Positions 26,375 through 43,554 of a DNA stretch of 64,000 bases are shown piece after piece. Source of the stretch: an uncultured Chlamydiae bacterium (GTDB lineage: Bacteria; Chlamydiota; Chlamydiia; Chlamydiales; SM23-39); contig CAWHDP010000002.1 of assembly GCA_963828125.1 (NCBI GenBank), positions 1,056,001-1,120,000 on the forward strand. Reading direction: 5' to 3'. The notes below the pieces were generated by a model. The model was not told the origin of the DNA. It searched no databases and saw only the letters and a program-made list of their open reading frames with translations. Each line of letters starts with the position of its first letter. Positions within the stretch are counted from its first letter, which is position 1. Made by a program: the position numbers and the translations under genes.

Positions 26375-26428
26375 TGCTCGGAGTGGGACTCGAACCCCCA
26401 CGGCATTGCTGCCAGGGGATTTTAAGTC
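26375..26428 (-). pseudogene. Displaced 3' half of tRNA-Leu(TAA) (att site)
   Basis: 54-bp homolog of 45156-45209; similarity stops just past the anticodon loop. Confidence 0.92.
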
Positions 26429-26649
26429 AGACCCAATCCAACCATCCTCAACCCATCTTAACCACTATCAAACTAATAATCAATAGGTTGATGGCCACTT
26501 CAGGTGATTAGATATTATTTTAGATTGGCAGCTTTTGAGTCTTGCTGTCCCACCTGTGTCCCCTACCTTATAAAAACGACCTTATAGAAATCGATAGCCC
26601 ATTTATTACCGAACAGGTATAATCAAGACAAAGAGTTTAGGACTGGTCT

Positions 26650-27009
26650 GTGAAGAAGTTAGTTTGGGTGGGGTCGAGCTACAAGGCTCTTAAAGAATTT
26701 CCTCCGCCTGTTCGTCAGGCTATAGGGTACGCCCTATTCTTCGCTCAGAACGGAAAAATCCATGAGCACGCGAAGGTACTCAGTGGTATGGGCAGCGCAG
26801 GCATCCAAGAGGTCCGCGAAAACGATAAGAGCGGAACCTATAGGGTGATTTATACCGTGGAAACGGCCGAATATGTATTTGTGTTGCATGCCTTTCAAAA
26901 GAAATCTAAATCCGGTATTGCTACACCAAAGCAAGAAATGGAGCTATTAAAAAGCCGCCTGAAAGAAGCCAAGGCTCTCTATAAGAGAATGATTGAGGAA
27001 ACCAAATGA
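26650..27009 (+). CDS. RelE/ParE-superfamily (Gp49-like) toxin
   Basis: GTYRVIYTV...VLHAFQKKSKSGIATPK. Confidence 0.88.
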   Translation: MKKLVWVGSSYKALKEFPPPVRQAIGYALFFAQNGKIHEHAKVLSGMGSAGIQEVRENDKSGTYRVIYTVETAEYVFVLHAFQKKSKSGIATPKQEMELLKSRLKEAKALYKRMIEETK

Positions 27010-27392
27010 AAACAAAAAAATTAAGAAAAAAACGTTTAGGAAATATCGAATATATTGAAAGTTCCGGGAATGTTTTTGCTGACCTTGGAATCCCCAATCC
27101 TGAAGAAGCGCTAGCTAAAGCCGAAATCGCCATGAAAATCCATGACGTTATCAAGAAAAAGAAACTCACTCAGGCAAAGGCCGCGAAAATCCTCAAAATT
27201 AGCCAACCCAAGATTTCTTTGCTTCTTCGTGGTTATTTGACTGACTTTTCTCTAGAACGGATGCTCCGTTTTTTAAATGATCTCGGTCAGGATGTCTATA
27301 TCTCAATCGTGCCTTCTTCACATTCGGGACACGGCAGCACTATGATTGGCGATTCCCCTTCCAATGCTAGGATTGCAGCCCTTGGCAAATAA
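27006..27392 (+). CDS. XRE/HigA-like antitoxin
   Basis: SSGNVFADLG, LTQAKAAKILKISQPKISLL, FSLERMLRFL. Confidence 0.88.
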   Translation: MKTKKLRKKRLGNIEYIESSGNVFADLGIPNPEEALAKAEIAMKIHDVIKKKKLTQAKAAKILKISQPKISLLLRGYLTDFSLERMLRFLNDLGQDVYISIVPSSHSGHGSTMIGDSPSNARIAALGK

Positions 27393-27449
27393 AAATATAC
27401 TCCTTGAATTCCAAAAAACTCAGCTTACCAAAGGTCCAAAAGGTTCAAA

Positions 27450-27716
27450 TTAACGGAGAGGTGCTTGGAATTAAAGATGTCGTTACTTTTCAAGGCACGA
27501 CTGTCGATGAGATTGAGAAGGTTTTTAAGGACTCAATTGATGATTATCTGGCTTTTTGTGCCGAGAGAGGAGAAGAGCCAGATAGACCCTTCTCCGAAAA
27601 AGTTCAATCTACGTATACCACCTGAATTGCATGCCAAACTGTCTATAGCAGCACACCTCCATGGAGAGAGCCTTAACAATTATATCGCGAAGATGTTGCT
27701 GAGGTTAGTAGCTTAA
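27450..27716 (+). pseudogene. hicB: HicB antitoxin, 5'-truncated and frameshifted
   Basis: GEVLGIKDVVTFQG...DDYLAFC...PDRPFS, then KFNLRIPPELHAKL in another frame (shift near 27597). Confidence 0.85.
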
Positions 27717-27731
27717 TCGATTGCCGCTCGA

Positions 27732-28304
27732 TTATCCGCGTTCCGGCACAAGCTGATTGTTCTGATTACAAATTTGTTTAATAATTCTTCCTAAATGTTG
27801 CTTAGAAGGAATTAAATAACTTTTGGCTGTCGTTGCTGGGTCGCTCAATAAGATGTTGTATAGTATGGGATCCTTCGTAATAATCGCTGTTAATCCACCT
27901 TTGACCATAGCATCATGTAACCAATCACCTTCAGCTTCCACATAAGCAATGGAGGGCTTTTCTCTGCCACAAAACCACCCAATTTCCCATGCACAATTTC
28001 GGCCATATGGAGGTAAGACTAATAATATGTCAGATTGATTCATTCCCTTGAAATCCGCTCGATAGATAGCATAATCCATCTCACTTGCTGAAACACCATC
28101 TAAATGTACGTCTTGTGGTCGAAAGAGAGTGAACCCTACACCTAATTCTTCTGATATTATGTCGTTCCATTGCTTTGCTGACTGAGTTAACCGAGAGCAC
28201 AAATAAATGTGTAACGTTTCTTCTTGGCATGACAACTCTAGCGAATACATAGAAACCCAAAGAAATAATAAGTTAGCGAGAATTCTTTTCATAAAGAGAC
28301 TCAC
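27732..28304 (-). CDS. Nucleoside 2-deoxyribosyltransferase-like protein with hydrophobic N-terminus
   Basis: IYLCS, LFRPQD, IYRADFKGMNQSD, CAWEIGW...KP. Confidence 0.65.
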   Translation of the reverse strand: MSLFMKRILANLLFLWVSMYSLELSCQEETLHIYLCSRLTQSAKQWNDIISEELGVGFTLFRPQDVHLDGVSASEMDYAIYRADFKGMNQSDILLVLPPYGRNCAWEIGWFCGREKPSIAYVEAEGDWLHDAMVKGGLTAIITKDPILYNILLSDPATTAKSYLIPSKQHLGRIIKQICNQNNQLVPERG

Positions 28305-28421
28305 AATACTGAAATCCGGAGAGTGATGTTAGCATATTAGGGTGTCGGATTGCCAGAATAATTTACAGATCAAACCCAATTGTCTTTTCGTTTATCTCGG
28401 TATCAATCGCAATAGGCAATG

Positions 28422-28661
28422 CTAATGAATGACCCAACCGCATAGCCTGAAGCCTTTGAAGCTCAGATCCCAACCAAGAATGTGTGGCAATGGACCATAG
28501 AAGTCCTTATAGCGTCCCTGGCGTACTTTTGCATCAAATGGGCTTACACCAGCACTACGCACTCGTACTAAGACCTCGTCTGCATTGATCGTTGGGGTAT
28601 CGGTATCCTCGTATCGAAGAACTTCAGGTCCCCCATAAGCGTGAAAACGGATCACTTTCAT
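28422..28661 (-). pseudogene. Truncated NADPH:quinone oxidoreductase (MDR family)
   Basis: MKVIRFHAYGGPEVL...EVLVRVRSAGV...LPHILGWD, then ends. Confidence 0.85.
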
Positions 28662-28966
28662 TCTTTTTTCTCTCTCTGCTGTGTCGATAATAGTGGATCA
28701 TGAAGGCCTGGGACAAATTCTATGATCTGGTATTCACTCACCTTTGCTTGAGTGAATGGGTCATCTCTTAAAAATTGCTCAAATTTATCTCGAGAAATAT
28801 TTTTGGCAATGATCACGCCTCCTGTACGGGGTTGCAATTTCCCAGAAATAAGCAACTTCCCTTCTTCGAGAAATTTCAGTAGATGTTCGCGGTGTTTCTG
28901 TAGCAGCGCATCTATTTCAGCAATAGGTCTTACGTATTTTAGTATTGCGATGAACATATTTTGCAT
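28658..28966 (-). CDS. YciI-family protein
   Basis: KHREHL, LLISG, PRTGGVIIA, DDPF. Confidence 0.85.
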   Translation of the reverse strand: MQNMFIAILKYVRPIAEIDALLQKHREHLLKFLEEGKLLISGKLQPRTGGVIIAKNISRDKFEQFLRDDPFTQAKVSEYQIIEFVPGLHDPLLSTQQREKKE

Positions 28967-29002
28967 AGGCTATTTGTGATTATCTCCTTGGGTCAATCAT
29001 AA

Positions 29003-29803
29003 TCAAGTCTTGAAAAGATCTTGGTGAGATCCTCCGCTCTTATAGATGTGATGTACTGAAGCTTGTGCTGTAGGAAAAATAACCATCTCTGAAATATCCA
29101 CATGCAGAGGCCTGGTAGCGCAGTAAACAATAGCGTCGGCAATGTCTTCTGCAGCTAAAGGGGTAAATCCAGCATACATTTCCTTAGCGCGTGCGCTATC
29201 CTGCCAACGGACCTCGCTGAACTCTGTTTCGGTCATTCCTGGAGCAATATCGGTAACACGCAAAGATGTACCTATTAGGTCGAGACGCAGGGATTTGCTG
29301 ATGGCCTTCACTGCATGTTTGGTAGCACAATAGACATTCCCTCTCGGATAGTAGTCATACCCCGCTGTGGAGCTTACATTGATGATGTGGCCGCGGTCAC
29401 GAGCTATCATCCCAGGCAAGATAGCGTGGGTTACATACAGAAGACCACACAGGTTGATCTGAATCATTTTGTCCCAATTCTCGGGGTCAGCGTCCTGGAA
29501 TTTGTCACTTGTTAAGGCCACGCCAGCATTATTTAGCAAAATGTCGATGGGTTGCCATGATTCGGTGAGTTCTTTGATAAGAGTGTCAATCTGCTTTCGG
29601 TCCTGAACATCAAGAGAAAGAGGCAGCACATCCACATGATAACGCTCATGCAATGCGCGTGCTAGCGTTTCCAAACGCTCCTTCCTCCGTGCAGTAATAA
29701 TGAGACGGGCACCTGCTGCGGCAAACTGTTCCGCGGAAGCCTTCCCCATTCCACTTGAGGCTCCCGTAATGAAGACGATCTTATTCTTTAACGACATAGC
29801 CAT
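29003..29803 (-). CDS. SDR oxidoreductase (YdfG-like)
   Basis: TGASSGMG, NNAG, YCATK, PGMTETEFSEVR. Confidence 0.9.
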   Translation of the reverse strand: MAMSLKNKIVFITGASSGMGKASAEQFAAAGARLIITARRKERLETLARALHERYHVDVLPLSLDVQDRKQIDTLIKELTESWQPIDILLNNAGVALTSDKFQDADPENWDKMIQINLCGLLYVTHAILPGMIARDRGHIINVSSTAGYDYYPRGNVYCATKHAVKAISKSLRLDLIGTSLRVTDIAPGMTETEFSEVRWQDSARAKEMYAGFTPLAAEDIADAIVYCATRPLHVDISEMVIFPTAQASVHHIYKSGGSHQDLFKT

Positions 29804-29947: not shown

Positions 29948-30184
29948 TTAGCTCATTTGGAGCCCGAGAATTTTTTTGGAAACTTCTTTCATTTCTTTCA
30001 AAATCGACCTTTCTCTTCTTCTCTTCTCTAGAGCCCTCAAGGTGGTACCCCCGTGCTTTTCCCTCTTGTAGTATACCCCTCCATGCATTCTACACCGTCC
30101 ATTCTTCATGCCAGGTTGATCGCATGGATTTCCCCCCTTGGTTCTGCACTTTGCCCCACACGTCTTAACTCCTCGAATCGGCAT
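29948..30184 (-). CDS. HGGxSTG-like Cys/His small protein
   Basis: CGAKCRTKGGNPC...NGRCRMHGG. Confidence 0.75.
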   Translation of the reverse strand: MPIRGVKTCGAKCRTKGGNPCDQPGMKNGRCRMHGGVYYKREKHGGTTLRALEKRRRERSILKEMKEVSKKILGLQMS

Positions 30185-30659
30185 CTTTGCCTCCCTTGTC
30201 TGGGATTATGGTTTCCATGAGTGCATTGCCTTGTCCGCTGTAGTTATAATTGACTGTGATATTCTGGGCACCCCCACTCCGCTTCTTTTCTAGTTGTTGC
30301 ATCGCCTCATTGGAAAAGCGGAGTAGGTTCAGTCCCAGTTTTTGATCGTCCATGTAGGGCTCAGCCAACTTCCGCATGCCCAACATATGGCAAGCCACAA
30401 TCTGGGCTGCATACAGCGTTTCCAAGCCATCTCTTGGGTTCATCCCCTTCATCAGGGCCCAGAGCCCATCTAATTCGTCTTTCGATATAGATCGAGCCCC
30501 AAACTCACTCTTTCCGTAAATCGTGTTGGCAGCTTCTTGAATCAACACCTTTGCAGCCTTATCCGAATCCACGTGAAAAGCCTGCATAATAGGAACTAGA
30601 GAGCTTGGTGCCTGAATCGACCTGTCGGGGGGAGGTTCGCTTTTTTGTTGTTTAGCCAT
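30165..30659 (-). CDS. Island-associated hypothetical protein (PxDxxE...AQ family), copy 2
   Basis: MNPRDGLETLYAAQIVACH...LEKKRSGGAQNITV. Confidence 0.7.
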   Translation of the reverse strand: MAKQQKSEPPPDRSIQAPSSLVPIMQAFHVDSDKAAKVLIQEAANTIYGKSEFGARSISKDELDGLWALMKGMNPRDGLETLYAAQIVACHMLGMRKLAEPYMDDQKLGLNLLRFSNEAMQQLEKKRSGGAQNITVNYNYSGQGNALMETIIPDKGGKDADSRS

Positions 30660-30663
30660 GCCT

Positions 30664-30870
30664 TTAGGTCCAATAGTATCCGCTTTGACTGGCACGTCGC
30701 TTCAACTCTCGGTCTTCAGCTTCATGCTTTTTAATGGCTTCTAGAGCCTTTGGATCACCCTGTTTTGCCTTCAAGAAAAGCTTAAGCCATTTTCTGGCTC
30801 GACTTTCTTGCAACTTCTCTAGCTTTTCATGGTCGTAAAAGTCGATAAGTTCTATCGCTGGAATTTTCAT
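30664..30870 (-). CDS. Small hypothetical protein
   Basis: 68-aa ORF with ATGA overlap inside the operon. Confidence 0.55.
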   Translation of the reverse strand: MKIPAIELIDFYDHEKLEKLQESRARKWLKLFLKAKQGDPKALEAIKKHEAEDRELKRRASQSGYYWT

Positions 30871-31406
30871 GCACTTACTCCATCCAGAGTTACGGGCTGA
30901 TCCTCTGATTTAACAGTTTTGATATTGACCACCTGCCCCTGATTGACGTTGTATTGAACGCTAATCTGCTGAGCCCCTTTACTACGGTATTTCTGGAGAG
31001 CTTCAAGGACCTTGTGACCAAATTCAAACAGATCGATTGGAACGCTATATTCCTCAGCTGCCTCCATCCCACGAATATAAGTGATGGCAAACTGACTCGC
31101 AAGCGCGGCTTCGATCGCATCTGCTGGCTGGAGCGATTCGATCAGATGCATCACCATCTCAACCTGATCACTCGTCGCCACCGCTTTGGGTTTTATATAG
31201 TTTTCGTGATAGTCCCACTGGGGAGGATCTTTCAAACGGTAAGCCGACTTTATAGTCCCACGAATAATCTGCCTGATTACTCCTTGATTAGTCGGCGGCC
31301 TATCTGTCCTGATTGGATTGAAGTCCTCGGGGACGGGGTAGTAAATATCCTCAGGGCTTTTTTTTTGTTTCGCTACCAATTTGCTTTTTCGTCTTGTAGG
31401 GCTCAT
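30867..31406 (-). CDS. Island-associated hypothetical protein (PxDxxE...AQ family), copy 1
   Basis: LQPADAIEAALASQ...LQKYRSKGAQQISV; ATGA overlap with the primase stop. Confidence 0.7.
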   Translation of the reverse strand: MSPTRRKSKLVAKQKKSPEDIYYPVPEDFNPIRTDRPPTNQGVIRQIIRGTIKSAYRLKDPPQWDYHENYIKPKAVATSDQVEMVMHLIESLQPADAIEAALASQFAITYIRGMEAAEEYSVPIDLFEFGHKVLEALQKYRSKGAQQISVQYNVNQGQVVNIKTVKSEDQPVTLDGVSA

Positions 31407-33850
31407 TGATTGCCTCGCAATTGAGGGTGAATGGAAACTTTGGTGGAAGGGCGACCGATTGTCTTCGTGGTTTCTGTTCTGACCCAACCGAATTCTTCCA
31501 ACAGTTTAATCGCATTGGCTACTTGTTCAGCCGTGTCCAATTTCGACCAGTGTTTTGCATGATACACATCGCGAGGAGAGAACCCATCGGATAGGTCTCC
31601 CCGCTTAATCCGCTCTAAAAGGGCTCTGGCCGATTCCATGCTGGGATCTTCGCCAGATGCATAAAGCCGCTTTGCATGGGTTTCCAGATATTCACACCAC
31701 AGAATTGCTTGACGAGCTGCTTGGAGATCGACTTCGACTGGCTGAATGCCTCTTCCTACCGTTTCAATGAGATAAAAGATAAGCGCCAGGCTTGGCATCA
31801 AGGAACGGTACTTTGCCAAATGACTTTCTAAGGCCGGGCCCAGTTCCCCATTGCGCAATCTCTGCTCAAGGTGAGTACGCCATTCATCGAACAAGTGTTG
31901 AGCTTGGGGTGCAAAACGGAGCTTGTAAGTTTCAAAAGCCCCACTCAACGAGGGTTCAAAAGGTGCAAAAGCATCGAGTTGCCTAAAAACCTCAAATGCT
32001 TGCTCTCTGGCAGCCAAATTGGGAGTGCGATCTATATTTTTCCATACCTTGGGAGCATCAGGCCACACCAACATTTGGAAGCGCTGCAAGAGACCGTCAT
32101 CGCCACCTCCTCCAGTTGTGGCTTGATGAACGTACGATCCTAGAGGACCCGGCTGAATACCCCCTACAATCGAAAGACAGAGGGCAGGGATATGTAAAGT
32201 GCCCCTGCCTATGCGATCGACGGTATAAGGACCATTTCCGTTCCAGGACTCAAGGAAAAAGGCTCGATCCCCTTCGCGGCCATATTTATCCAGCCCTTTA
32301 AGCCATCCAACCAGTTCGTCGCGATGAATGAGGATGCCTTGAGGATTTTCGAGTAAAATCTCCCCGATTTTCTCAACCGTGCCATCTTCAGTCTTATATC
32401 TTTTTTGGATTGGCTTAGAGATCGCTTCAACCTGATCGAATTGAGGCATTTTGGGAGTCGCCGACTTGTTTCGTGCAGCCTTTTTCATTTCCTCTTTCTG
32501 AGCTAATTTCTGAACTTCAGCCCACATTTCCTTCTGCTCATGAAGTTGAAGATCTTCCCGATGTTTGTGGATGGCTTTAGCGGCCAACTCATCAAGAGGC
32601 TTCATCATTTCAGCAACAGCAGGCGATTTTAACAAAGAAGGTCTGCCAACCACAGCGCCCCAAAGGTTTGGAATGACCAACCAATCATCATGCGCCTTCG
32701 GAAAGATGCCGGTTTTTCGGCCTACCAAAGACCCCACGACTACGATACAAGTTGCAGCAAGAAAGTCAGGAGGAACCTGCATCCGTTCCGCGTTGTCCAT
32801 GATCCAGGGGCGAAGGGTTTCGGGAAGCATTTCCTCGCGAAAAGATACAACCGGATACAGCTCTTCCTTAAGGGGAAGAGGGGTACCCCACTCCTCTTTT
32901 AGACCCAGAAAGATACGTAGGTCTTCGATCCCTTTCCCTTCACAATGGGAATGCTGACATTTGAAGCCCGATCCCTTGTACCCATTAGTATGAGCTTCGA
33001 AATAAGCAGTACCTTGATCGCCAGTTGTATGGAGATCCGCAAAAGGACAGAGAATGTCCCAAGCGCCAATCTTATTAGGCAACTGCCGCCTAACCATACC
33101 TCTTTGATTCAATTCCTGAAGAATAGGATCTTGAGACTCTCCCAACTTTGGACCTTTGGATGGCACAGGCCCTGTCAGGTCAATTTGAAACGCCTGTAAG
33201 AAGCTGGCGGCCCTGTATGGTAAAGCCTCGTTGCGCTCAATAACCCGAACTAAGGTAGGATCTCCTTTCCGATGAAAAAATCCAGGCAGCCGCATGACCC
33301 GAGGAAGATCATGGACTGCTCGATCAGCATCAAAACGCTCAATCAAATCCTTTTGAACCAATGAAAACTGCTCCAGAGGCAGCCCTTCCATTAGCCAATA
33401 GGCATGAAATCGTTTTGGACTCGATTCCACAACGACATGAGGTGGTAGAGGAGCCAAAAGTATGGGCTCAAGAGGGGCCCCGTCCAAATCAACAAAAACT
33501 GCCCGTACTTTTGTAATATTTTTTGTTTCTCTGCCTTTGAGGTCTGTCTCATTAACAGTGAAAAACACCCCGGCTCCACGCCCGTTCAATTCTGTGAGCA
33601 ACGGCAAATGCTGGTCCAGAGTCCCATGAAGAACATGTACGAGGTGACGAGCATGCCGCCCTTTCACATCATCAAACGTCTGAAAGGTGATCTGCTCTCC
33701 TTCAGCGATTAGATTCAAAAATTGAGCCGCTTCTAGATTGCCGATTTTGGGAGATAGCGGTATACTCGGGGTATAAAGACTTTCGTTTTTTGTGAAAGGA
33801 GCTGATGCCGGCCAAGGAGCAGCTCCTTCATTTTTTGCGCTCACACTCAT
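31403..33850 (-). CDS. Primase-helicase: RepB-type primase + Cys/His linker + DUF3987/YfjI P-loop domain
   Basis: AVFVDLD, ESSPKRFHAYW, RVMRLPGF; CPF..H...CQHSHC; VVGRPSLLKSP, HRDEL, DDGLLQRF. Confidence 0.85.
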   Translation of the reverse strand: MSVSAKNEGAAPWPASAPFTKNESLYTPSIPLSPKIGNLEAAQFLNLIAEGEQITFQTFDDVKGRHARHLVHVLHGTLDQHLPLLTELNGRGAGVFFTVNETDLKGRETKNITKVRAVFVDLDGAPLEPILLAPLPPHVVVESSPKRFHAYWLMEGLPLEQFSLVQKDLIERFDADRAVHDLPRVMRLPGFFHRKGDPTLVRVIERNEALPYRAASFLQAFQIDLTGPVPSKGPKLGESQDPILQELNQRGMVRRQLPNKIGAWDILCPFADLHTTGDQGTAYFEAHTNGYKGSGFKCQHSHCEGKGIEDLRIFLGLKEEWGTPLPLKEELYPVVSFREEMLPETLRPWIMDNAERMQVPPDFLAATCIVVVGSLVGRKTGIFPKAHDDWLVIPNLWGAVVGRPSLLKSPAVAEMMKPLDELAAKAIHKHREDLQLHEQKEMWAEVQKLAQKEEMKKAARNKSATPKMPQFDQVEAISKPIQKRYKTEDGTVEKIGEILLENPQGILIHRDELVGWLKGLDKYGREGDRAFFLESWNGNGPYTVDRIGRGTLHIPALCLSIVGGIQPGPLGSYVHQATTGGGGDDGLLQRFQMLVWPDAPKVWKNIDRTPNLAAREQAFEVFRQLDAFAPFEPSLSGAFETYKLRFAPQAQHLFDEWRTHLEQRLRNGELGPALESHLAKYRSLMPSLALIFYLIETVGRGIQPVEVDLQAARQAILWCEYLETHAKRLYASGEDPSMESARALLERIKRGDLSDGFSPRDVYHAKHWSKLDTAEQVANAIKLLEEFGWVRTETTKTIGRPSTKVSIHPQLRGNQ

Positions 33851-34065
33851 CGGACGTCTCCTCTTTTATTTGACTCAAGCCAGTTAAGAAACAAGTGAGG
33901 AGAAACGAGCAATTTGCGCTTGCCAAGTCGCCGAACAAAGCAATCGGCTCCATTGAATTTTGAATTGAATAGAATCCAACGCAGGCTTCCTACACTGATG
34001 ATGGAGGAGTATTGCTTGCAAAAATCCTTGATGGTTAAGTAGTCATTTAAATCTTGATGAATCAT
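33847..34065 (-). CDS. Excisionase/AlpA-like small DNA-binding protein
   Basis: YLTIKDFC...GSLRW...RRLGKRKLLVS...FLNWLE; lies directly before the primase. Confidence 0.7.
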   Translation of the reverse strand: MIHQDLNDYLTIKDFCKQYSSIISVGSLRWILFNSKFNGADCFVRRLGKRKLLVSPHLFLNWLESNKRGDVR

Positions 34066-34245
34066 GCTGTTTCCTTATGGGTTATGCATGGGTTTTGAGC
34101 GGGCGGCAACCGTTGCCAATATCCCTTTTCTCTAGCCCCCACCTTACAACATAACCATCTCATTCTCAATACAGTTCAAGTACTGAACACAAACTAAACT
34201 TCCCTCTCTATAGAAGTGCTCGAAAACCTGAAAATTGTCGTCGAA

Positions 34246-35361
34246 TTAGATTTCGATTTCTTCGTTGCGCAATGCAATAATTTGGTCGAGAATCCCCGAT
34301 TTTTTCCATCTTCTCTTCTGGGATTCCACAGCCCCATAAGGAGGAAAGTGTGCGGGTAGTTTCCGAATAGGGCGGCGTGTCTGAAGTAAATAGAACATCG
34401 CATTTAGCAGGTCTAATGGATTATGAGTCGCCTTCCGTCCTTTTCTCTCTAAAATCCCTGGAATCCGCTTACAAATCACTTTCCATTCTTTTATAGAAAC
34501 AGGCTCAAAGTAGGGCTTGACCGAAGCATCATGATGGTATTTTTTCGCCGACTTCTCGGCCCGCTTCTTATCAAAGGGAGGTCTCAGTGAAGCAGAGGTA
34601 ATCGCCTCTTTGAATCCGGCTATTCTAGCAGCTTTTTTCAAACAAGCATCGACTTGAACGGGAAGAAGAGGCCCTCCGTTTCTAGTGGAAAATACAAAGA
34701 CGGAATCGTCCTCGATTTGTTCGCAAACAGCCCTCCACAAACGGGGAGGAAGATAGTGAACAACCATATGGCACTTGGTCCCTGAGCGAAATAATGTGAT
34801 GCAATTAGAACGATTGGGCTCATCAGGATCAATATCCTTCACCTGAAGACGAACAACCTCTTCAAGAGTCACAAAATCACCCCCTTTTCCCAGGATCTGA
34901 TTGAGATACCAAACGATCTCTACAATTACAGCGACTTGTTCGTTCAATTTGAAAAGTTCCTTGCGAATCTTCCTATATTCCTTAGAGGTAAGAGAGGGAA
35001 ATTTGCGTTTTTCTCGTCGATTCGCATCACTTTCTTTACGCCGTGCTTTTCTAGGAAAGCGATCTGTCACCCAGTTCAACGGAATATCGTTTTGCCTACA
35101 TAATTCCTTGAGAGCTTTCTCTGACCACAACCAAGGGACGATAGTTTCTCTAACTGAAGCCGCATTTTTTTCTAGGGCTTTATTCTCTCGCTTCGGTAAT
35201 GGCTCAATTTTTTGACCATCAAGAGGCGTAAACTTGAATCGAGCCAACTCACCAGTCTCTGTGATTGCACCATCAGGAAGATGAAAAAACGGCACACTAA
35301 CCCATCGCTTTTTCCAGTAAGCCATACCGAAAAACAGTTCTCGACCATTTTCGCGTTTCAT
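34246..35361 (-). CDS. Chimera: degenerate tyrosine-recombinase domain + IS5-type (DUF4096-like) HTH domain
   Basis: TLEEVVRLQVKDID...FVFSTRNGGPL...ITSASLR, then EWKVI...LNAMFYLLQT..PIRKLP..FPPYGAV...RRWKKSGILDQI. Confidence 0.65.
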   Translation of the reverse strand: MKRENGRELFFGMAYWKKRWVSVPFFHLPDGAITETGELARFKFTPLDGQKIEPLPKRENKALEKNAASVRETIVPWLWSEKALKELCRQNDIPLNWVTDRFPRKARRKESDANRREKRKFPSLTSKEYRKIRKELFKLNEQVAVIVEIVWYLNQILGKGGDFVTLEEVVRLQVKDIDPDEPNRSNCITLFRSGTKCHMVVHYLPPRLWRAVCEQIEDDSVFVFSTRNGGPLLPVQVDACLKKAARIAGFKEAITSASLRPPFDKKRAEKSAKKYHHDASVKPYFEPVSIKEWKVICKRIPGILERKGRKATHNPLDLLNAMFYLLQTRRPIRKLPAHFPPYGAVESQKRRWKKSGILDQIIALRNEEIEI

Positions 35362-36494
35362 GCTTCAGCTCCAAGAAAATGTTTGTTCATCCGATCAACC
35401 ACAGTGTGTTTATGAGAGTCGCTCAAATGGGCATACCTTTTCACCATAGCAAGAGTTTTGTGGCCTAAAATATCGGCGATTTCAGCAAGGGAGGCCCCAC
35501 TCATGGCAAGGTAGCTGGCCGCACAGTGCCGAAGGTCATGGAAGCGAAAATCTCTAAGCCCTGCTTTTTTCATTGCTGCAACCCAAGCACCTCTCAATTC
35601 AGCGGGTTTTTGAACCTTTTGAACCCTCCTTAGATCTACTTGTTCAAATGTTAGATCCGAAGACGACACCACCTCTGTTATTGACCGCACTTTAGGAAAA
35701 AGAAGGTTCGTATCAATTCGCCTGCTCTTTTCCAAACGAGCAAGAACGTCCAAGGCCCCTCCCGCAATCGGCACGGCGCGCCGCTCCCCATTTTTTGTTT
35801 CCTGTAGAATAATTCGTTTACGGGGGATGTCCACATCGGCCCAGGTTAAATTGATGATCTCGCCATGTCTCATTCCCGTCGATAAGGCGAGCAAGACAAC
35901 AGGATAGAGATGTGGGTTAGCGCTTTCCCTACAAGCCCTCAAAAGCCGCTCCCTCTCTTCATCATCTAAAAATCGAACCCGCCCTCGGGCTTCTTTTAGT
36001 TTTGAGACCTTTCTCATGGGAGAATCTTCGATCCATCCCCATTCCTTCACTGCGACCGTAAGCGCATGACTCAATGCACTGAGATATCGAACCACGGTTG
36101 CAGGAGATCTTTGAGTACCCCGAAAGGTCATTCCTCGAAATAGTTCATCTCTCTTTTCAGCGATCAAGGCAGGGGTGACGTCCGCAAGCAGATGGGTACC
36201 TATCCGCTCCTTCCACCAAAGAAGCTGAGCCGTCTGTTTTTTCTCGCTCTTTTTCTTTTGTGGAAGAACATCACGGATGTACCGATCGACTAGCTCGCCC
36301 AAGGTATGCTTTTTTGCTTCACTGGTTTTGAAATGCCGCCCTTCAAGAATGGCAGCCTCGGTTTCCCGGGCCCATCTTTTGGCGTCGCCAAGCCGCTGAT
36401 GGGTTTCTGTTTGCGGCGGATATCCCTTCAAACGGATCTTTACTCGGTAACGAGTGACCCCATCTTTCGTTTTTCTCTCTTCAATCACAGCCAT
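35358..36494 (-). CDS. Tyrosine recombinase/integrase (intact)
   Basis: TGMRHGE, TKNG, FHDLRH, LGHK, RYAH catalytic set; adjacent to att. Confidence 0.95.
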   Translation of the reverse strand: MAVIEERKTKDGVTRYRVKIRLKGYPPQTETHQRLGDAKRWARETEAAILEGRHFKTSEAKKHTLGELVDRYIRDVLPQKKKSEKKQTAQLLWWKERIGTHLLADVTPALIAEKRDELFRGMTFRGTQRSPATVVRYLSALSHALTVAVKEWGWIEDSPMRKVSKLKEARGRVRFLDDEERERLLRACRESANPHLYPVVLLALSTGMRHGEIINLTWADVDIPRKRIILQETKNGERRAVPIAGGALDVLARLEKSRRIDTNLLFPKVRSITEVVSSSDLTFEQVDLRRVQKVQKPAELRGAWVAAMKKAGLRDFRFHDLRHCAASYLAMSGASLAEIADILGHKTLAMVKRYAHLSDSHKHTVVDRMNKHFLGAEA

Positions 36495-36818
36495 AACAAG
36501 CTCCAAATCTAAAGCATGAGACCATACCAAGACTTCTCAATAACTAGCAACCATGGGATTACCTTTCCCTCGAAATACAATCGCAAACAGTTCATATCAA
36601 ATCGATTATGTATTTACGAATCGAAAAAGGGACTCTGGTGGGACACTAAAAGAAAAAATCGCATGGATTTTGAGAGGAAAGACTGTTCGGATCAGGTTTG
36701 TTCTATAGGAATGTTTAAAACGGATGTGTTGAGAATTGCTGTCCCACTAGCGTCCCATAAAGGGACGAGAAGGACAGTTTGGGATCGAATATTTTGAGGT
36801 ATTTTCTCTCTATGAAAT

Positions 36819-36872
36819 TGCTCGGAGCGGGACTCGAACCCGCACGGTATTGCTACCAGGGGATTTTAAGTC
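36819..36872 (-). pseudogene. Displaced 3' half of tRNA-Leu(TAA) (att site)
   Basis: 54-bp homolog of 45156-45209 with compensatory stem changes. Confidence 0.92.
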
Positions 36873-37054
36873 TCGCTCGTGTTCCTAACAGCGCATAACG
36901 CGCCCTAACAACTGCATAGAGAAGTTACCACATTTCGCCCTTCCGATCTACGCAATTGTTAGCAAAAGCTAGCGAAAGTTGCGTGGGGTTCTGACCCACA
37001 TTTGACCCACAGATCGACCCTGAAAATAGAAAGTTTTAAGAAGAGGCTGTCTGG

Positions 37055-37912
37055 CTAGTCATCTTCTCCATCATCGCATTCTGGCTCCGATTGGTAGGAA
37101 ACCACTTGGAGCATTTCCCATTTTAAATTGATGTCGGGACAATCGTTAATGCTCTTAATTGGCCAGGTAAACTCATTGGCCATGGGATAGATACCTAAGG
37201 GAATGAGGTAACAATAGATATCTTGCATGTTGGACGGTAATTTTACACTCATGGGAACAGGGAACAGCTCGGTGGGATGCCTAAACTGCAACTCTCCCTC
37301 CACATCATTATTGCCGTCGTTTCTTATTTGGACGACCAAGTAGGATTTTTGCCCCATCAATTCTCCAATGCTCAGCTGAGTAAAGTACTGAAAAGAATTT
37401 GGAAACAAAAGCGACACTTGATTCTCCGTTAAAATGAAAGACCTCATAAAAATATTACTAGCATAACTTTCATCTTCTCTCTTTATTTTCTTATAAGAAA
37501 AAGTCCTGATCTGGCAGCCTACATCGCAATTTATTTGAGAAGGATTGGGGATTTCGTAACCTTTGAAAATGATCTCATTGCCTGGAGGAGTTGTGGAAAT
37601 ACTAATCTCTGAACATTGAAGAGCATCCGCATCTTTGCAAATAATATTTATAACAGGAAGATTCCACTGCTCTTGGATTTTCCGCTCAAACCGGGCTAAC
37701 AATTCAGGGCGCTTGAACAAAAATTCAATTTCATCTGCATCTAAAAGAATGGTGACTGTTTGATCCTCATCATTGCGCTGCATGCTATCCGCGTCCACAT
37801 GAATGATCGATCCAGGAGCCACTTCAATCGGAATTTCAAAAGCGCAAAGAGGTAAAATCTCTACGATTAGAAATGATAAGGTAAGAAAAAAATTTCGATG
37901 GCATGACAACAT
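37055..37912 (-). CDS. Hypothetical exported protein, last gene of the RHS operon
   Basis: Signal peptide ending LPLCA; 12 nt downstream of the RHS stop; duplicated at 21584-22369. Confidence 0.75.
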   Translation of the reverse strand: MLSCHRNFFLTLSFLIVEILPLCAFEIPIEVAPGSIIHVDADSMQRNDEDQTVTILLDADEIEFLFKRPELLARFERKIQEQWNLPVINIICKDADALQCSEISISTTPPGNEIIFKGYEIPNPSQINCDVGCQIRTFSYKKIKREDESYASNIFMRSFILTENQVSLLFPNSFQYFTQLSIGELMGQKSYLVVQIRNDGNNDVEGELQFRHPTELFPVPMSVKLPSNMQDIYCYLIPLGIYPMANEFTWPIKSINDCPDINLKWEMLQVVSYQSEPECDDGEDD

Positions 37913-37924
37913 TTATCCACTCCT

Positions 37925-40900
37925 TTATTTCAGTACTACGGGACGCTGAAACTCATCATAGAGAATTTCTCTAATCGAGCCGTTCGGCAGCGTGATTTTA
38001 GTTAATCCGCCAAAGGCGCTGTATTCATAAGAGCTTATCCCTCCCAAAGCATCTACAACCTGCACCAAATGATCTTTGTCATCATAATCAAAAACAGAGG
38101 TTAGGCCTAAAGGGTCAATTTTCGACAATACGTTCCCGTTGTCGTCATATGAATACACCGTTTCACCCAAAGGAGAAGAGATTTTTGTCACTCGATCTCG
38201 TTCATCATATGAATACCGTATGGTTTTGCCCGATTCAGAAACTTCAATCAGACGTGCACGATCATCGTAGGCTCTTTTCGAAATGAATCCGTTGGGACAG
38301 CAAACTTCTAAAGGAAGCCCCTTTTCATCCAGCTGAAAGCTTTTTCCGCCGCCGCCTGGGAAATCGACGGAAAGAAGACTTCCTGTTTGAGGGTCATACT
38401 GAAAAGAAGTCGCAAATCGCTCATCTCCTTTCTTAGTTACTTTCCCATTTTCTATACTCAAAAAATTAAGACGAAATGGTTTATACATCTTTATCAACCT
38501 TCCGTATGCGTCATATCGATATGCCGTAGTGATTCCAAGCCCATCGGTTTCTTCAAGAAGATTGCCTGATTCGTCAAATTCAAATTTCCTTTCCCCTCGA
38601 TAGGCATCGCTTATTTTAATAGGTCGGCCTAAGACGTCATATTTGTAGGAAACCTCGAGCCCATTATTATCAACAGTCTTTTCAGGCCCGAAAGTCCCCG
38701 AATAACTCAGTTCTAACCCCCTTCCTAGTGAATCTACAATTCGTTGAGGCCGATATTTTTCGTCAAACTGTTCTTCCAAGAAAAAATTGTTGGGACCCTC
38801 TACTCGAGCCCTTCGCTCAGACAAACTGAACTCCTGCTTAAGCTGCATTCCCTGAATATTTTTCTCTTCCGCACGATTGTAAATATCGTAGCTTGCCTCA
38901 AAAATTTTACTCCCTTTTGCATCAAAAATAGCCGTGAGATGTAAATCTTTATCGTAGACATAACTCATGAGAGCGCCCGCCTTATCTCGAACTTCCCTAA
39001 GCTGACCTTCGGGACCATAGAAATAAGAGATAGTTTTACCTCCAGCTCCCACAGCGCGGATGATCTTGGACCCTTCATATTCAAGCTGAATGACCGGAGT
39101 CCCCTGAGAAGAAATGGAAACCAATCTCTCTGCCTCATACCCATAGTCAATTGACATTCCGCTTTTATCGCTGATCTTGACAAGTTTACCGTCGGAATCG
39201 AAGAAAAGATGCTCCTGTTTTTGGGAAAGGACAAAGATTCCATCTCCATTTTCAATCAAAAAACCAGCCTTGCTTTCGGCGCGATAAATCGGTTGTTTCC
39301 CAACATCAAGTCCTATGAGTTTATAAAGCGTCTCTTGGCTTTTAATCCCTACAAAAATCTCGGAGTACACTTGCAGCTCCGTTCCATCTTGAAAACGACG
39401 CCATCTTTTTTCAGAAGCGAAGCGCAATTTTGCAGGAAGAATTTCCCAACCTACCCCCAGTGCCGATCTTTGCTCATTGAAAGAGCTGTAGGTTCGAACA
39501 AGAGCCAAAGGCACACTGCCCGGAACGGAAAAGTTCATGTCGACAAAAGTTTTCTTTACGTTACCAACCTTAAGCGATCTGGCAAACGTTTGAGCAACAG
39601 CCGTATAGCCTCTGCCAAAATCCCAAGTTAACTCTTCCTCTCCCGATCTGCCTCGCAATACCTCATCTTTGATGTCATTAGCCTGCCATCCATCTGAAGT
39701 AGAAAAGTTGCTCTCATCCAGATGATAGGTTACACCCCCGCTAATCACCATTCGATATTCGGCATCTCCTATTTGAGGGGTGTAGATCGGCGTACTAACA
39801 GATTGAGGCGCATAACTTCTAAAAAATGAAAGGTCAAAGGGTATGTTTTGATCTTTGATCCATTTAACAACACCCGTAATTTTACCAAGTCTTTTTAAGT
39901 CTTGAAGGACAGGAAATTCATTTGCAAACGCATCATAATTTTGCGTGAAATGGGAAGCGAAAGTTTCCGCTGCATGATCGCGGTAATTACTTCCTTTAAA
40001 TTGCGATTCAGTGAGGACCTGCATACGGACCTCGTCGAACACCATAGAAGTCCCATCCTCCGACTGCACAAGGCTAATCTTCTGAGGAACAAACCACATG
40101 CGCCATGTGAAGTAGGGAGGCAAGTGTTTCTCTCGGCCATAAAGTTCTAGAAGATCGCGGTAGCCGCCAACATGGGCTTTAAAATTCCTGCCTGTGCAAT
40201 TATCCTTTCCCAAAACAAGATTTTTTAAAAGACAATCAGCCTCGAACATCACCTGCCCAAAACGAGTGTCTTTCGTCTCACCAAAATAAGAGACAACCAT
40301 TCTATGCTGAGGTTTTTTCTTCTTTTTCGGAGGATTAGGATCTGGGTCCATAGAAATACCAGGATCTTGCGCCGCTTTTTCTCCCAATCCATACACAGAA
40401 CGAACCGCCACGGCCAAATCATCAAGGTGCATTTGAGGCAACGGTAAATCTTTCGTCCCATAAAGGATCATTTGACCCGTTTTTTGATCAAAAACTGCCC
40501 CCGCAATATCGGAAATGTTCGTCATCATCTCAGCTGTTTTTGAGAGAGAAATCCCTCCGTAATTCGGCTGAAATAATAAGCTGTGGTCTTGATTTCCAAT
40601 TTGGAATTGAAAATGGTCAAAATCATAAGACAAACCAAGTCCTTCTTTATCCGGCAAAAATCTTGGATCGATATGCTTGCTCTCTTCCAGCATCCAATTG
40701 CAAAATTTTCTGGGTGCTGAAATTCCGCTAGGAAATGGCTTGAAACTCGGATGAGGATACCCTACTGCATCCATCGATTTAACCGCATGATCGATACAAT
40801 TATCGTATGGCGTCCAATGCTGATAATTTCCGACCTGTCTTGCAAGCAATTGCTGCTCTGGAGTAACCCATATCGTCAAGCTGACAGTTTCTTTGCATAG

Positions 40901-42532
40901 AGAAAATTCATGCTCGTTATTTTTTATTTTATGGCCAGGCCACGCGCCTTGAGTAAATTGATTGCCCTCCGCATCTATCCCGCCTATCCAACCATGACCT
41001 ACATTAGATTTGCCACCGGGCGTTTGAGTCCCAGGATAATTCCCATAAAAAGTCAAAGGGACTTTAACAGCATACAATCCTGATGGGTCGATTAAATTGA
41101 CAGGATTATTCCTGACATAAACATAAGGGTTAAGAGTTTGGGGATCGCCTAATACGCCTAAGACAGAATCAGGCGAAATAAATCTCCCAATTTCAGGATC
41201 ATAGTAGCGATTCCGAAGATAGATAAGACCAGTCTCTTCATCATACTCCTCTCCCGCGTATGCATAGGGATTTCCAAAGCTGCTTGATTGATCCCTGAAG
41301 CCAAAAGAGGAATATGCATACCTCTCCAGCACCCTTTGATTTTTATCAACTAACAGCGAAACGCTTTTCCCAGGCTGGTCATAAAGGAAGAATTGCGTGC
41401 CGGAAACCCCAGAGCCCAGAATACGGGAACATCCATACACATACCGTTTTTTGGTCTTGCCCTTGCCGTCTTTTTCTAATAAAACTCTGCTAAGGGAAGC
41501 TGCCGGATCGTTGATAAAAGACGTTTTTTCCCCATTGACAATCTTCGAAACCCGCCTCCCTTGTCCATCGTAGCCAAAAGCGATCTTATCGTTTCCATTA
41601 TCAAATGAAGTAAGACGCCCGGCTGAGTCATACCCAAGGCTGATGTTTTCCTTTTCGGAAGTTTTTTTGACCAAGCATCCCGAAGCATCATAATAAAAAC
41701 GAGTCCCTCCTGCCCGTATTAATCGATTGCGACTATCATATTCATATTCAATGGTTCCATTCGGCGTAATCTTGGCCAAACGATTCCCAGCGCCATCGTA
41801 GGTGTACTGTTCAAATGAATGATCAGAGTAACGAACCTCAACAAGCCTTTTTAATTGGTCGTAAGAGTAGCCCGTGGTTTTAGTCTCTGAGAGCGTTCGT
41901 TCTTCAACTGACGTACAATTATTATTGCTGTCATAGGTAAATTCGTACTGCGTAATAAGCCCGCCGTCTGACTTCTTGTGCGACACTCCAGTAATTCTAG
42001 GAAAGGCATCATAACTGTACTCAACGACAATGCCGTTAGACAGCCACTCCTTTACAACGAGGTTTGTTTGATCGTTATATTCATATTCGGTACTGCCGGT
42101 CTGATCAAAAACCTTAGTTAGCCGGCCTCGATGATCATATTCGTACTTAACTTCTTCCCGATCAGGATAAGTAATTTTAACGACCCTATCTGCTAAATCG
42201 TATTCGTAGACAAGAGAAGTATCTCCTGGAAACTGCGCTTTCACCAAACGGTTTGAAGAATCATAAGAATAAGAAGTGGTTTCGGCACCTTTAACTACTT
42301 GAGTGAGATTGCTGTTGCAATCATAGGTATATTTGATGCTTTCGCCATTAGGATAGCGAGTTTCAACAAGCCTGTTGATCGGGTCATATGAATAAGCAGT
42401 CGATCCCATGGGAGAAATTGTGCATTTGGAAATATTGCCATTTGCATCATAAGATATGGATTTTTCTATATAATCCGCTGAGAGGCAAAAAATAGAAAAA
42501 AGGGAAAAGAAACAAACAGAAAATAAATTCAT
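37925..42532 (-). CDS. RHS/YD-repeat protein with permuted domain order
   Basis: Signal peptide; YD repeats; core YAGEEYDEETGLIYLRNRYYDPEIGRFISPD...NPYVYVRNNPVNLIDPSG (aa 482-485); DUF6531-like motif at aa 990-1029; YD repeats to the end. Confidence 0.92.
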   Translation of the reverse strand: MNLFSVCFFSLFSIFCLSADYIEKSISYDANGNISKCTISPMGSTAYSYDPINRLVETRYPNGESIKYTYDCNSNLTQVVKGAETTSYSYDSSNRLVKAQFPGDTSLVYEYDLADRVVKITYPDREEVKYEYDHRGRLTKVFDQTGSTEYEYNDQTNLVVKEWLSNGIVVEYSYDAFPRITGVSHKKSDGGLITQYEFTYDSNNNCTSVEERTLSETKTTGYSYDQLKRLVEVRYSDHSFEQYTYDGAGNRLAKITPNGTIEYEYDSRNRLIRAGGTRFYYDASGCLVKKTSEKENISLGYDSAGRLTSFDNGNDKIAFGYDGQGRRVSKIVNGEKTSFINDPAASLSRVLLEKDGKGKTKKRYVYGCSRILGSGVSGTQFFLYDQPGKSVSLLVDKNQRVLERYAYSSFGFRDQSSSFGNPYAYAGEEYDEETGLIYLRNRYYDPEIGRFISPDSVLGVLGDPQTLNPYVYVRNNPVNLIDPSGLYAVKVPLTFYGNYPGTQTPGGKSNVGHGWIGGIDAEGNQFTQGAWPGHKIKNNEHEFSLCKETVSLTIWVTPEQQLLARQVGNYQHWTPYDNCIDHAVKSMDAVGYPHPSFKPFPSGISAPRKFCNWMLEESKHIDPRFLPDKEGLGLSYDFDHFQFQIGNQDHSLLFQPNYGGISLSKTAEMMTNISDIAGAVFDQKTGQMILYGTKDLPLPQMHLDDLAVAVRSVYGLGEKAAQDPGISMDPDPNPPKKKKKPQHRMVVSYFGETKDTRFGQVMFEADCLLKNLVLGKDNCTGRNFKAHVGGYRDLLELYGREKHLPPYFTWRMWFVPQKISLVQSEDGTSMVFDEVRMQVLTESQFKGSNYRDHAAETFASHFTQNYDAFANEFPVLQDLKRLGKITGVVKWIKDQNIPFDLSFFRSYAPQSVSTPIYTPQIGDAEYRMVISGGVTYHLDESNFSTSDGWQANDIKDEVLRGRSGEEELTWDFGRGYTAVAQTFARSLKVGNVKKTFVDMNFSVPGSVPLALVRTYSSFNEQRSALGVGWEILPAKLRFASEKRWRRFQDGTELQVYSEIFVGIKSQETLYKLIGLDVGKQPIYRAESKAGFLIENGDGIFVLSQKQEHLFFDSDGKLVKISDKSGMSIDYGYEAERLVSISSQGTPVIQLEYEGSKIIRAVGAGGKTISYFYGPEGQLREVRDKAGALMSYVYDKDLHLTAIFDAKGSKIFEASYDIYNRAEEKNIQGMQLKQEFSLSERRARVEGPNNFFLEEQFDEKYRPQRIVDSLGRGLELSYSGTFGPEKTVDNNGLEVSYKYDVLGRPIKISDAYRGERKFEFDESGNLLEETDGLGITTAYRYDAYGRLIKMYKPFRLNFLSIENGKVTKKGDERFATSFQYDPQTGSLLSVDFPGGGGKSFQLDEKGLPLEVCCPNGFISKRAYDDRARLIEVSESGKTIRYSYDERDRVTKISSPLGETVYSYDDNGNVLSKIDPLGLTSVFDYDDKDHLVQVVDALGGISSYEYSAFGGLTKITLPNGSIREILYDEFQRPVVLK

Positions 42533-42540
42533 TTTTCAAA

Positions 42541-43094
42541 CTATATGGTATATAAACTTTTCCATTCGCAAGTTATAAGAGGTGTATTTTCATGCAAGTG
42601 CTCATAAAATTGAGGTAATCGGGGCCCCGCTTCGGGGTGATTACCTCAGTTTTATGAGCACTTGCATTTTCATTATCAGGAACAGTTCCTCTATACATAG
42701 GAAGAACAGCATCACCAAAAAATTTCATGTAGCTCGGCATCATCATTATTTCAATCGATATGGGAATACCTCCCCCTGGAAACTTGCAATTTAAAGTACC
42801 AAAAGACCTGTAATTGCCAAAATTTTTACATCGAACCAAAAGGAATATTTCCTGGCCATAAAGTTCCTTGTTCGATTTTTGAGTAATTTCTGTATTGCTT
42901 TCACTAAATATTTTTGCGACTTGATCTTTCGTAACCAAGTACGCTTTTACTTCAATATTTTTCGCATATTTCTTATTCGAAAGATAAATACGAGAAACAA
43001 AATCTAAATTATTAGCCCTCACAGAACAGCAACCACAAATGCAAAACAATAACAGAATCGTTCTCCAAAATAACAACACAAAGTCCCTCTTCAT
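42541..43094 (-). pseudogene. Small exported RHS-operon protein (copy B), C-terminus disrupted by a MITE
   Basis: Removing the 80-bp insertion restores ...DNENTPLITCEWKSLYTI*, matching the paralogs. Confidence 0.85.
42594..42665 (-). mobile_element. 72-bp MITE derived from the IS66 element
   Basis: 27-bp TIRs matching the IS66 ends; 8-bp TSD ATTTTCAT at 42586-42593 and 42666-42673. Confidence 0.92.
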
Positions 43095-43095
43095 T

Positions 43096-43554
43096 TCACA
43101 TTGTATACAAGCTCTTCCACTCCCAATTAATTACAGAAGCATTATTATCATTTGGAATAAATCCATTTCCTATATACAGGACAGAATCGTGAAAGGAGTT
43201 CATTAAACCGGGCATCATTTCGATATCAAATGTTATTGGTACTCCACGATTTGGAATTGTACAATTTAAAAGACCGAAAGACATGGATTCCCCATGATTC
43301 TTCACACGAACAAGCAAAAATACTTCTTTGCCATAGAGTTCTTTGTTGATTTTTTGAGTAATTTCTCGATTTTCTTCACTAAATAATCTCGCAACTTGAT
43401 CTCTTGTAACTAAATACGCTTTTACTTCAACATTTTTCGCATATTTTTTATTCGAAAGATAAGCTCGTGAAAGCAAATCCAAATCATCAGCTTTTGCAGA
43501 ACAAAAGCAACAAGAACAGAACAGACACAAAAAACTTTTCCAGAACCGTGACAT
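43096..43554 (-). CDS. Small exported RHS-operon protein (copy A)
   Basis: GGAGG RBS; signal peptide; ends EWKSLYTM. Confidence 0.8.
   Translation of the reverse strand: MSRFWKSFLCLFCSCCFCSAKADDLDLLSRAYLSNKKYAKNVEVKAYLVTRDQVARLFSEENREITQKINKELYGKEVFLLVRVKNHGESMSFGLLNCTIPNRGVPITFDIEMMPGLMNSFHDSVLYIGNGFIPNDNNASVINWEWKSLYTM

Follow-up and report, generated by a model that had tools for sequence, protein, structure and literature searches.

A dead plasmid-type recombinase fused to an IS5 DNA-binding domain is a candidate site-specific regulator of a chlamydial integrated element

The window analysed here, a 64,000-nucleotide stretch of DNA from an uncultured Chlamydiae bacterium, contains an ORF (34246..35361, minus strand) whose 371-aa product, hereafter the chimera, joins an N-terminal domain (N-domain), a dead and shortened tyrosine-recombinase catalytic domain, and the DUF4096 domain of an IS5 transposase, as delineated from the ORF, Pfam, an AF2 model and a fold search. 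On balance, the chimera is probably produced along with the integrase and regulates its own element by binding DNA at a specific sequence. Its proposed binding site, recognised from alignment of the DNA behind the genes and from comparison with IS5 ends, is a 13-bp motif, TAATTCGACGACA (34236..34248, minus strand), that overlaps the stop codon. A first-pass annotation of the ORF had called it a domesticated DNA-binding protein in a regulator-like slot. That reading is carried forward here with DNA binding itself as a prediction, and gains family age, purifying selection, a fixed slot and a candidate site in the 34066-34245 stretch; the N-domain, the loss of a core-binding domain and the DNA motif overlapping the stop codon are new relative to it. 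Relatives with DUF4096 are referred to as the chimera form and those without it as the sister form.

The ORF is uninterrupted in the frame first assigned to it, and its ATGA overlap with the integrase stop was confirmed at 35358-35361. Alignments place the N-domain at aa 8-100 (35062..35340, minus strand); it is a conserved unit of about 100 aa, with beta strands and two helices, common to the sister form. No row of the fold searches covers the N-domain, which was searched within larger models, and its Atlas score of 0.82 against integrase N-terminal regions is a lead only. It is followed by a basic linker (aa 101-121; 34999..35061, minus strand; 11 of 21 residues Lys or Arg) that sits where the sister form has a core-binding domain of about 90 aa. 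This helical domain (Z 7.8 to the lambda core-binding domain in the sister form) is absent from the chimera, deleted at aa 104/105. The dead catalytic domain, assigned from the fold search, alignment and a tree, spans aa 118-261 (34579..35010, minus strand) and terminates at box II. Finally, DUF4096, which we take to be a DNA-binding domain, occupies aa 282-365 (34267..34518, minus strand), with a putative recognition helix placed by alignment at aa 342-354 (34300-34338, minus strand). Pfam matches DUF4096 over aa 291-361 (E 1.4e-11, above the curated cut-off). Because the NCBIfam IS5 model (NF033580) is matched only at positions 7-79 of 258, the chimera has no DDE catalytic domain, and the gene stops 10 aa past DUF4096; the C-terminus is thus an IS5 DUF4096 domain without DDE, as initially annotated.

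In the AF2 model (pLDDT 76.8), residues 115-263 adopt the tyrosine-recombinase catalytic fold: 3nkh is matched at VIA Z 13.8 (133 residues aligned, rmsd 2.6), and tyrosine recombinases fill all of the top 12 rows of the fold search. The Pfam Phage_integrase match is only marginal (aa 168-261, E 0.19), while hhalign against an active Pgp8-type recombinase gives 95.4%. Profile matches thus exist, whereas their absence would have refuted the first-pass annotation. When the chimera is aligned to the active Pgp8-type recombinase, the box I Arg corresponds to T165, the Lys position falls at about G194, and the box II His corresponds to A257, with the box II Arg kept as R260. Everything past box II is missing, and with it the His/Trp and Tyr residues. 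The chimera consequently keeps only the box II Arg and the box I Glu from the R-K-H-R-H/W-Y set plus the box I Glu. Among 64 full-length relatives the box I Arg occurs in none and R260 in all; a box II His is possible in at most three, the other 61 being accounted for without one. The alignment and these relatives bear out the loss of the box I Arg, the box II His and the downstream His/Tyr that had been read from the single sequence. Judging from these residues, the chimera is incapable of DNA recombination.

The dead domain is evidently derived from chlamydial plasmid Pgp8-type recombinases and not from the adjacent integrase. A profile of the sister form, which shares the N-domain and the stop at box II but keeps the helical core-binding domain and has no DUF4096, finds 325-aa chlamydial recombinases, and scores 55-68 bits for Pgp7/Pgp8-type recombinases versus -4 to 15 for integrases. 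These 325-aa recombinases, L041 included, are 49-51% identical to Chlamydia plasmid integrases such as pGP8-D. Catalytic motifs and C-terminal helices are retained in nearly all aligned Pgp7/Pgp8-type recombinases, the closest active kin of the dead domain. In a quick, midpoint-rooted tree of 59 catalytic domains (five rows excluded as fragments or misaligned), the chimera and sister forms group with Pgp8-type recombinases, apart from integrases (support 100); the chimera form is one branch (96) nested in the sister form (87). Origin by duplication of the neighbouring integrase was considered and is ruled out by hhalign (0.2% between the dead domain and that integrase), the profile scores and the tree. 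The nesting implies that death and shortening came first, and loss of the core-binding domain and gain of DUF4096 later; this later exchange probably happened once (one branch, support 87). By the same evidence, the ancestor is best described as a dead, shortened Pgp8-type recombinase already behind an integrase and still with its core-binding domain. Five sister-form genes end in TAA or TAG directly past box II. In sister-form loci L037, L038, L039, L044 and L116 a conserved CGATAA-containing box lies 2-7 nt behind the stop, with one further near copy 2-4 kb upstream in three of them; this box is a candidate site of the core-binding form.

The chimera belongs to an old family in which purifying selection acts on each of the three domains. 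A word search retrieved 25 chimera-family proteins among 3114 candidates, from which 24 full-length sequences including the query were aligned after exclusion of two truncated matches. A 50%-identity representative library yielded 55 matches at E < 1e-30, and the 64 full-length relatives, 24-79% identical, are encoded by open frames 340-394 aa long. Of 401 genomes of the phylum, 7 (its own genome counted) have a full-length match. The named relatives are Chlamydiae, which points to an environmental chlamydia as the host; L043 is a divergent form without the N-domain. Viral contigs held no relatives, and plasmids gave IS5-type partial matches only, none of 121 records covering 80%. The dN/dS check among homologues proposed in the first-pass annotation was carried out: against the closest relative the ratio is 0.03 for the N-domain (versus L105), 0.19 for the recombinase part and 0.08 for DUF4096, and it stays at 0.03-0.30 in all unsaturated comparisons (nine pairs, every domain with measurable dS). 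The fusion is accordingly not the unique and decaying one that would have refuted that annotation. Broken relatives do exist (L032, L115, L117-L119), as would be expected had an integrase remnant and an IS remnant fused by chance and begun to decay, but the number of representatives, their open frames and their low dN/dS refute that reading, to which we give next to no probability.

The motif was first seen by aligning the DNA behind the genes, and the ends of chlamydial IS5 elements were read out independently. The IS5 of L009 has the terminal inverted repeat GAGACTGTCGTCGAATTAA, and window positions 34236-34248 equal positions 6-18 of it at 13 of 13 bases, in right-end orientation. The outer five repeat bases are lost in chimera loci, the first base being kept in 0 of 14, and no intact outer end is present. 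The motif stands at the stop in 14 of 15 chimera-form loci versus 1 of 25 elements with other slot genes. A match of at least 9/13 lies within 32 nt of the stop in 13 of the 15 (four of them at 13/13); L031 has an 11/13 match at -42, and the fifteenth locus, L032, is broken inside DUF4096, its contig ending 50 nt later. In 340-nt windows, matches of at least 10/13 occur in 12 of 14 chimera loci versus 1 of 25 elements with another slot gene. These 25 control elements carry other genes before the same Xis-like family (30 loci were fetched; three of chimera form and two without upstream DNA were set aside), and their best score near the stop is at most 8, except at L137 with 11. Four of five sister-form loci score 6-7/13 and one has 10/13 at +52. 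Together with the L137 copy, this last copy indicates that the motif can exist without a DUF4096 domain. The L137 copy lies 2 nt (+2) behind the stop of an unrelated slot gene, with a chance expectation of about 0.04, and may be a remnant of a replaced gene or chance.

Pairwise conservation is 0.79 in the motif and 0.30 in its flanks, the motif identities being inflated because they are taken on best matches. For this reason, and because the loci are kin, the Fisher p of 3e-7 overstates the association. Three of its bases are accounted for in 6 of 14 loci, where the stop codon is provided by the motif itself. Searching genomes a second time at family level returned no new loci (2 of 129), and hence no held-out loci on which to try the motif. 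The window has a single copy of the motif, which lies 2.6 kb away from the closest att and outside the arm repeats. Its distribution goes with DUF4096 and not with the Xis-like gene, the subgroups of which share just 13-28%. Two other interpretations of the DNA here were rejected: an RNA hairpin, as no structure signal was detected (z -1.5 to +1.7), and a left IS end at the recombinase/DUF4096 junction, where the codons vary.

Among 22 IS domains scored, 12 have a verified inverted repeat. The two IS elements with the best DUF4096 family-profile scores (that of L009, the top scorer, and that of L010) have repeats that match the motif at 13 and 12 of 13 positions, while the other ten match at 5-8; the score-to-match correlation drops to 0.56 (p 0.08) once L010 is removed. 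The helix AVDSQYRRW of those two elements is the chimera-family consensus (S in 44, Q in 46, R in 50 and W in 52 of 52), and Tyr is found in 31 of 43 other IS-like rows at the position that holds Glu, His or Asp in the chimera family. Trees of DUF4096 (84 columns) did not place the family beside the L009/L010 IS elements. The shared helix and shared site may reflect descent or convergence; either way, they would pair the domain with the sequence, and we infer that the DUF4096 of the chimera binds the 13-bp motif. Copies of the L009/L010-type IS are flanked by TTA/TAA, which, with the TAA or TAG ends of sister-form genes after box II, makes insertion of an IS into a stop codon a plausible route. 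As a separate observation, P0099, P0101, P0114, P0106 and P0107 contain two to five DUF4096 repeats with no Pfam DDE match, so that domestication of DUF4096 may not have been a single event.

The 3' part of tRNA-Leu(taa) is present three times, at 26375, 36819 and 45156, the last inside the whole tRNA, indicating two elements in tandem. The chimera element is about 10.4 kb long, in the order att, integrase, chimera gene, 180 nt, Xis-like gene, primase-helicase, four small genes, cargo and att. Repeat comparison defines a 54-nt att core on the integrase side (36819..36872) and a distal core identical to it at 50 of 54 positions (26375..26428). Arm-type GTCCC repeats, two direct and one inverted, lie inside the integrase end (36629..36760), with two further GTCCC repeats at the distal end (26543-26565). 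By Pfam and alignment, the tyrosine integrase (35358..36530, minus strand; likely start 36494) is intact with all catalytic motifs. Downstream of the chimera gene is a 72-aa Xis/AlpA-like gene (33847..34065, minus strand) identified by family search. Its family is seen in 121 of 401 genomes of the phylum, and the Xis label is weak, with HTH_17 matched by 4 of 31 members and Tn916 excisionase matched at E 0.33. It is followed by an 815-aa replication protein with Pfam RepB-type primase and DUF3987 helicase-like domains (31403..33850, minus strand) and by four small genes (29948..31487, minus strand): two related ORFs without a known family, a 68-aa ORF and an HGGxSTG-like ORF. The HGGxSTG-like match is below cut-off, and in a search for terS, ppi and rpp type genes the small ORFs match no PHROG. 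By our own scoring, with no shuffled control, the xis-primase operon has a weak candidate promoter of sigma70 type (TTGAGA, 17 nt, TAAGGT; 34141..34169, minus strand), its -35 beginning 66 nt behind the motif; this candidate is absent from the promoter scanner's list. In 5 of 14 loci the same uncontrolled scoring places the first base of a candidate -35 at 77-79 nt from where the site starts. Four contig sets contained no excision joint, a result that says nothing on the absence of excision. The cargo (26650-27716 and 27732-29803) includes a Gp49/RelE-like and HTH_37 toxin-antitoxin pair (Pfam), as well as nucleoside deoxyribosyltransferase-like, YCII and short-chain dehydrogenase genes; remnants within 26650-29803 are presumably HicB-like.

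The gene occupies a fixed slot. We compared 28 loci, 20 of chimera form (L045 and L111 being the same DNA) and eight of sister form. In 25 of them the neighbour immediately upstream is an integrase, and in 20 the one immediately downstream is the Xis-like gene; where the latter is missing, five contigs end first and three are broken sister-form loci. The gap to the integrase stop is -20 to +18 in 24 of 24 measured loci, and -4 in 13. This translational coupling is what would be expected of an architectural co-factor of excision or integration, that is, a dead subunit made 1:1 with the integrase that binds it or bends the intasome DNA, with the motif as an anchor or autoregulatory spot. Covariation of the chimera gene is also somewhat stronger with the integrase (Mantel 0.51) than with the Xis-like gene (0.36). 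Helices after box II make recombinase subunit contacts, and in the chimera these are deleted. Moreover, the motif is single and away from att and the arm repeats, the chimera is 34-63% identical across elements whose integrases are 66-83% identical to that of the window, it is found beside several integrase subgroups and at no fewer than five tRNA targets (including Leu, Tyr, Met, Asn and Phe), and unrelated proteins occupy the same slot in 25 other elements. In favour of a co-factor, the authors describing PICMIs propose an Int-IOLG-AlpA excision complex (PMC10803314, excerpt), and TnsF, with a partial dead catalytic domain, aids another recombination machine (PMC10293859, excerpt). Overall we consider a co-factor unlikely. 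The suggestion in the first-pass annotation of a directionality factor or recombination inhibitor acting at att is likewise disfavoured, because the motif lies away from att, the dead domain is unlike the integrase in sequence, and the element has its own Xis-like gene downstream.

The occupants of the slot in the 25 other elements are two groups of uncharacterised proteins (11 and 5 loci), dead recombinases with a core-binding domain (2), a short dead recombinase (1), a weakly recombinase-like group, D (5; hhalign 36.6%, E 2e-4), and a transposase (1). With at least five other protein groups filling it, the slot might be a variable one and the chimera an accessory sensor, defence or anti-IS gene, its motif the leftover of an IS insertion. 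Accessory genes do lie between int and stl in SaPIs (PMC6092414, excerpt), and L137 has the motif without a chimera gene. Nevertheless, PADLOC returned no match for nine proteins submitted, and the five IS5-like copies of the own genome have no inverted repeat resembling the motif (best upstream match 8-10/13). Further, a non-coding 12-mer held at 0.79 identity despite saturated synonymous sites needs selection, and we judge an accessory role quite unlikely. Dead tyrosine recombinases without the His/Tyr region lie directly before Xis-like genes at L152:239-1195, L153:302-1279 and L129:1832-2392, apparently as separate recruitments. One slot family of 190-450 aa that matches no Pfam family (L131, L136, L137, L140, L142, L144, L146, L147, L154, L155 and L132) ends in a W..DL.P motif and a basic tail, and Atlas finds large unnamed Pseudomonadota and phage clusters for it at 0.94. 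The own genome has twelve related integrase genes (for example G000:C2:564241-566904), several with a long ORF over the stop, two of these from group D; one group D member overlaps another integrase by four bases.

A role in replication, partition or packaging would make the site an origin, or a place where the excised circle is handled, in keeping with the plasmid ancestry of the dead domain. The site does lie just upstream of replication genes, and L031 has a second high-scoring copy 3.6 kb downstream. In other loci, however, no iterated sites are found, and the downstream replication genes are of several unrelated types while the chimera gene and its site persist. Such a role is therefore very unlikely.

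A site-specific regulator finds its closest functional parallel in MrpR (YopR) and SroF, dead recombinase-fold repressors of SPbeta-like prophages that bind as monomers to an asymmetric box. Both, at about 320 aa, have a core-binding domain and a complete catalytic domain forming a clamp, and MrpR keeps Tyr304 (PMC10516654; bioRxiv 2025.11.27.690993, excerpts). In each case a non-catalytic tyrosine-recombinase fold is reused in a mobile element, with DNA binding predicted for the chimera, and the chimera's fold search returned both 8a0a (Z 9.8, rmsd 3.9 over 126) and 9rd5 (Z 8.5). By analogy, the chimera is most like MrpR/SroF in how it would work but fails their architecture: it has no core-binding domain, ends at box II, adds the N-domain and an IS5 domain, stems from another recombinase family, and shares only 14-17% structural identity with them. 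Context also differs, an SPbeta-like prophage with an arbitrium/sro operon versus a 10.4-kb int/xis-like/primase-helicase element.

In layout, the element resembles PICMIs and Gram-negative PICIs: int, an ATGA-overlapping gene, alpA or an Xis-like gene (the label being weak here) and a primase in one direction, with site-specific att; the gene order of Gram-negative PICIs matches that of the chimera element (PMC6092414, excerpt). In PICMIs, iolg overlaps int by ATGA, precedes alpA, is needed for induced excision and falls into 13 functionally uncharacterised families, and the early regulon switched on by induction consists of alpA and prim; the role of the int-overlapping slot is named there as an open question (PMC10803314, excerpt). 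The word 'recombinase' occurs nowhere in eight supplements to that paper, one of them covered in part. Compared by layout, the interchangeable slot families number 13 in PICMIs and at least six groups here. The targets are tRNA genes here and fis in PICMIs, and the resemblance of the chimera element to these satellites is one of gene order and att sites. TnsF of Tn6022 uses a partial inactive tyrosine-recombinase catalytic domain without the tyrosine chamber for DNA binding (PMC10293859, excerpt). The chimera shares with TnsF the partial dead domain, but has none of its zinc fingers and two core-binding domains and no Tn7 or Tsy context; TnsF serves a Tn7 transposase, and the chimera adjoins an active tRNA-targeting integrase, with a candidate site inside the element. 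Despite its C-terminal DUF4096 and the inner terminal-repeat sequence, the gene is not an IS, the locus having no DDE, one inner half-repeat only, and no two intact repeats with target duplication. RIT elements also have an inactive recombinase gene overlapping an active one, but comprise three full-length recombinases and terminal repeats, whereas the chimera element has one active integrase, tRNA att sites and the chimera.

Reuse of dead tyrosine recombinases has so far comprised regulators in one phage group (MrpR/SroF) and Tn7 target selectors (TnsF); the chimera would be an independent case, from a plasmid-type recombinase. It adds a second layer of recycling, the apparent capture of a transposase domain along with its binding site, a route better known from eukaryotes. 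We found in print neither the Pgp8-type origin of the dead domain nor the IS5 repeat-derived motif at the stop. Full-text searches of PMC CC and bioRxiv, with subscription journals largely outside, returned no paper on the chimera fusion or on direct DUF4096-repeat binding, none on DUF4096 domestication among the matches listed, and no description of these tRNA-integrated, primase-encoding chlamydial elements.

We therefore propose the following mechanism for the regulator. An IS5 copy would have landed at the 3' end of the gene and lost its DDE part and outer end bases, leaving behind a protein domain already matched to its site, and this pair would have taken the place of the earlier recognition module. 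DUF4096 would read the 13-bp site. Adjacent DNA would be held, and perhaps bent, by the basic linker together with the half catalytic domain, and the N-domain would meet a partner, either RNA polymerase or an inducing signal. Bound at the border of the int operon and the xis-primase operon, the chimera would set transcription of xis and primase, and that transcription state would determine whether the element excises and replicates. The candidate site is one asymmetric half-site, and the candidate -35, itself a weak promoter call, begins about 66 nt downstream of it. The location of the site upstream of, and not over, the promoter and the PICMI phenotype argue slightly for activation, and an activator or licensing factor is possible rather than probable. 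The MrpR/SroF analogy and the position at the end of the int operon point to repression or a roadblock, and a repressor or read-through roadblock is almost as likely as an activator. As a tentative conjecture, capture of a transposase may have let the element rewire its master switch in a single step: the core-binding domain and its box would have given way to the DNA-binding domain and terminal repeat of an IS5, with the chimera licensing the xis-primase operon. More broadly, the integrase-overlapping genes of satellite-like islands would then be interchangeable regulators, each binding one site just behind its own stop codon, repeatedly recruited from dead recombinases (up to five groups here). 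With a predicted 13-bp site, the role of the slot behind int, the question named in the PICMI paper, becomes directly testable.

The second element of the tandem (36873-45152) uses the same tRNA-Leu and is decayed, its integrase being in two pieces (44244-44915 and 44925-45143). It contains AbiEii-like fragments (43885-44356) and a 1535-aa YD/RHS-like repeat ORF (37925-42532) with two related small ORFs downstream; a related repeat fragment and small ORF recur at 23127-24906, and reads contain variant copies around 37200-38500. At 26000-26038 there is a perfect 18-nt inverted repeat whose arm is the end of an element of about 1.8 kb repeated at four other places in the genome, and this may be an empty or collapsed IS site.
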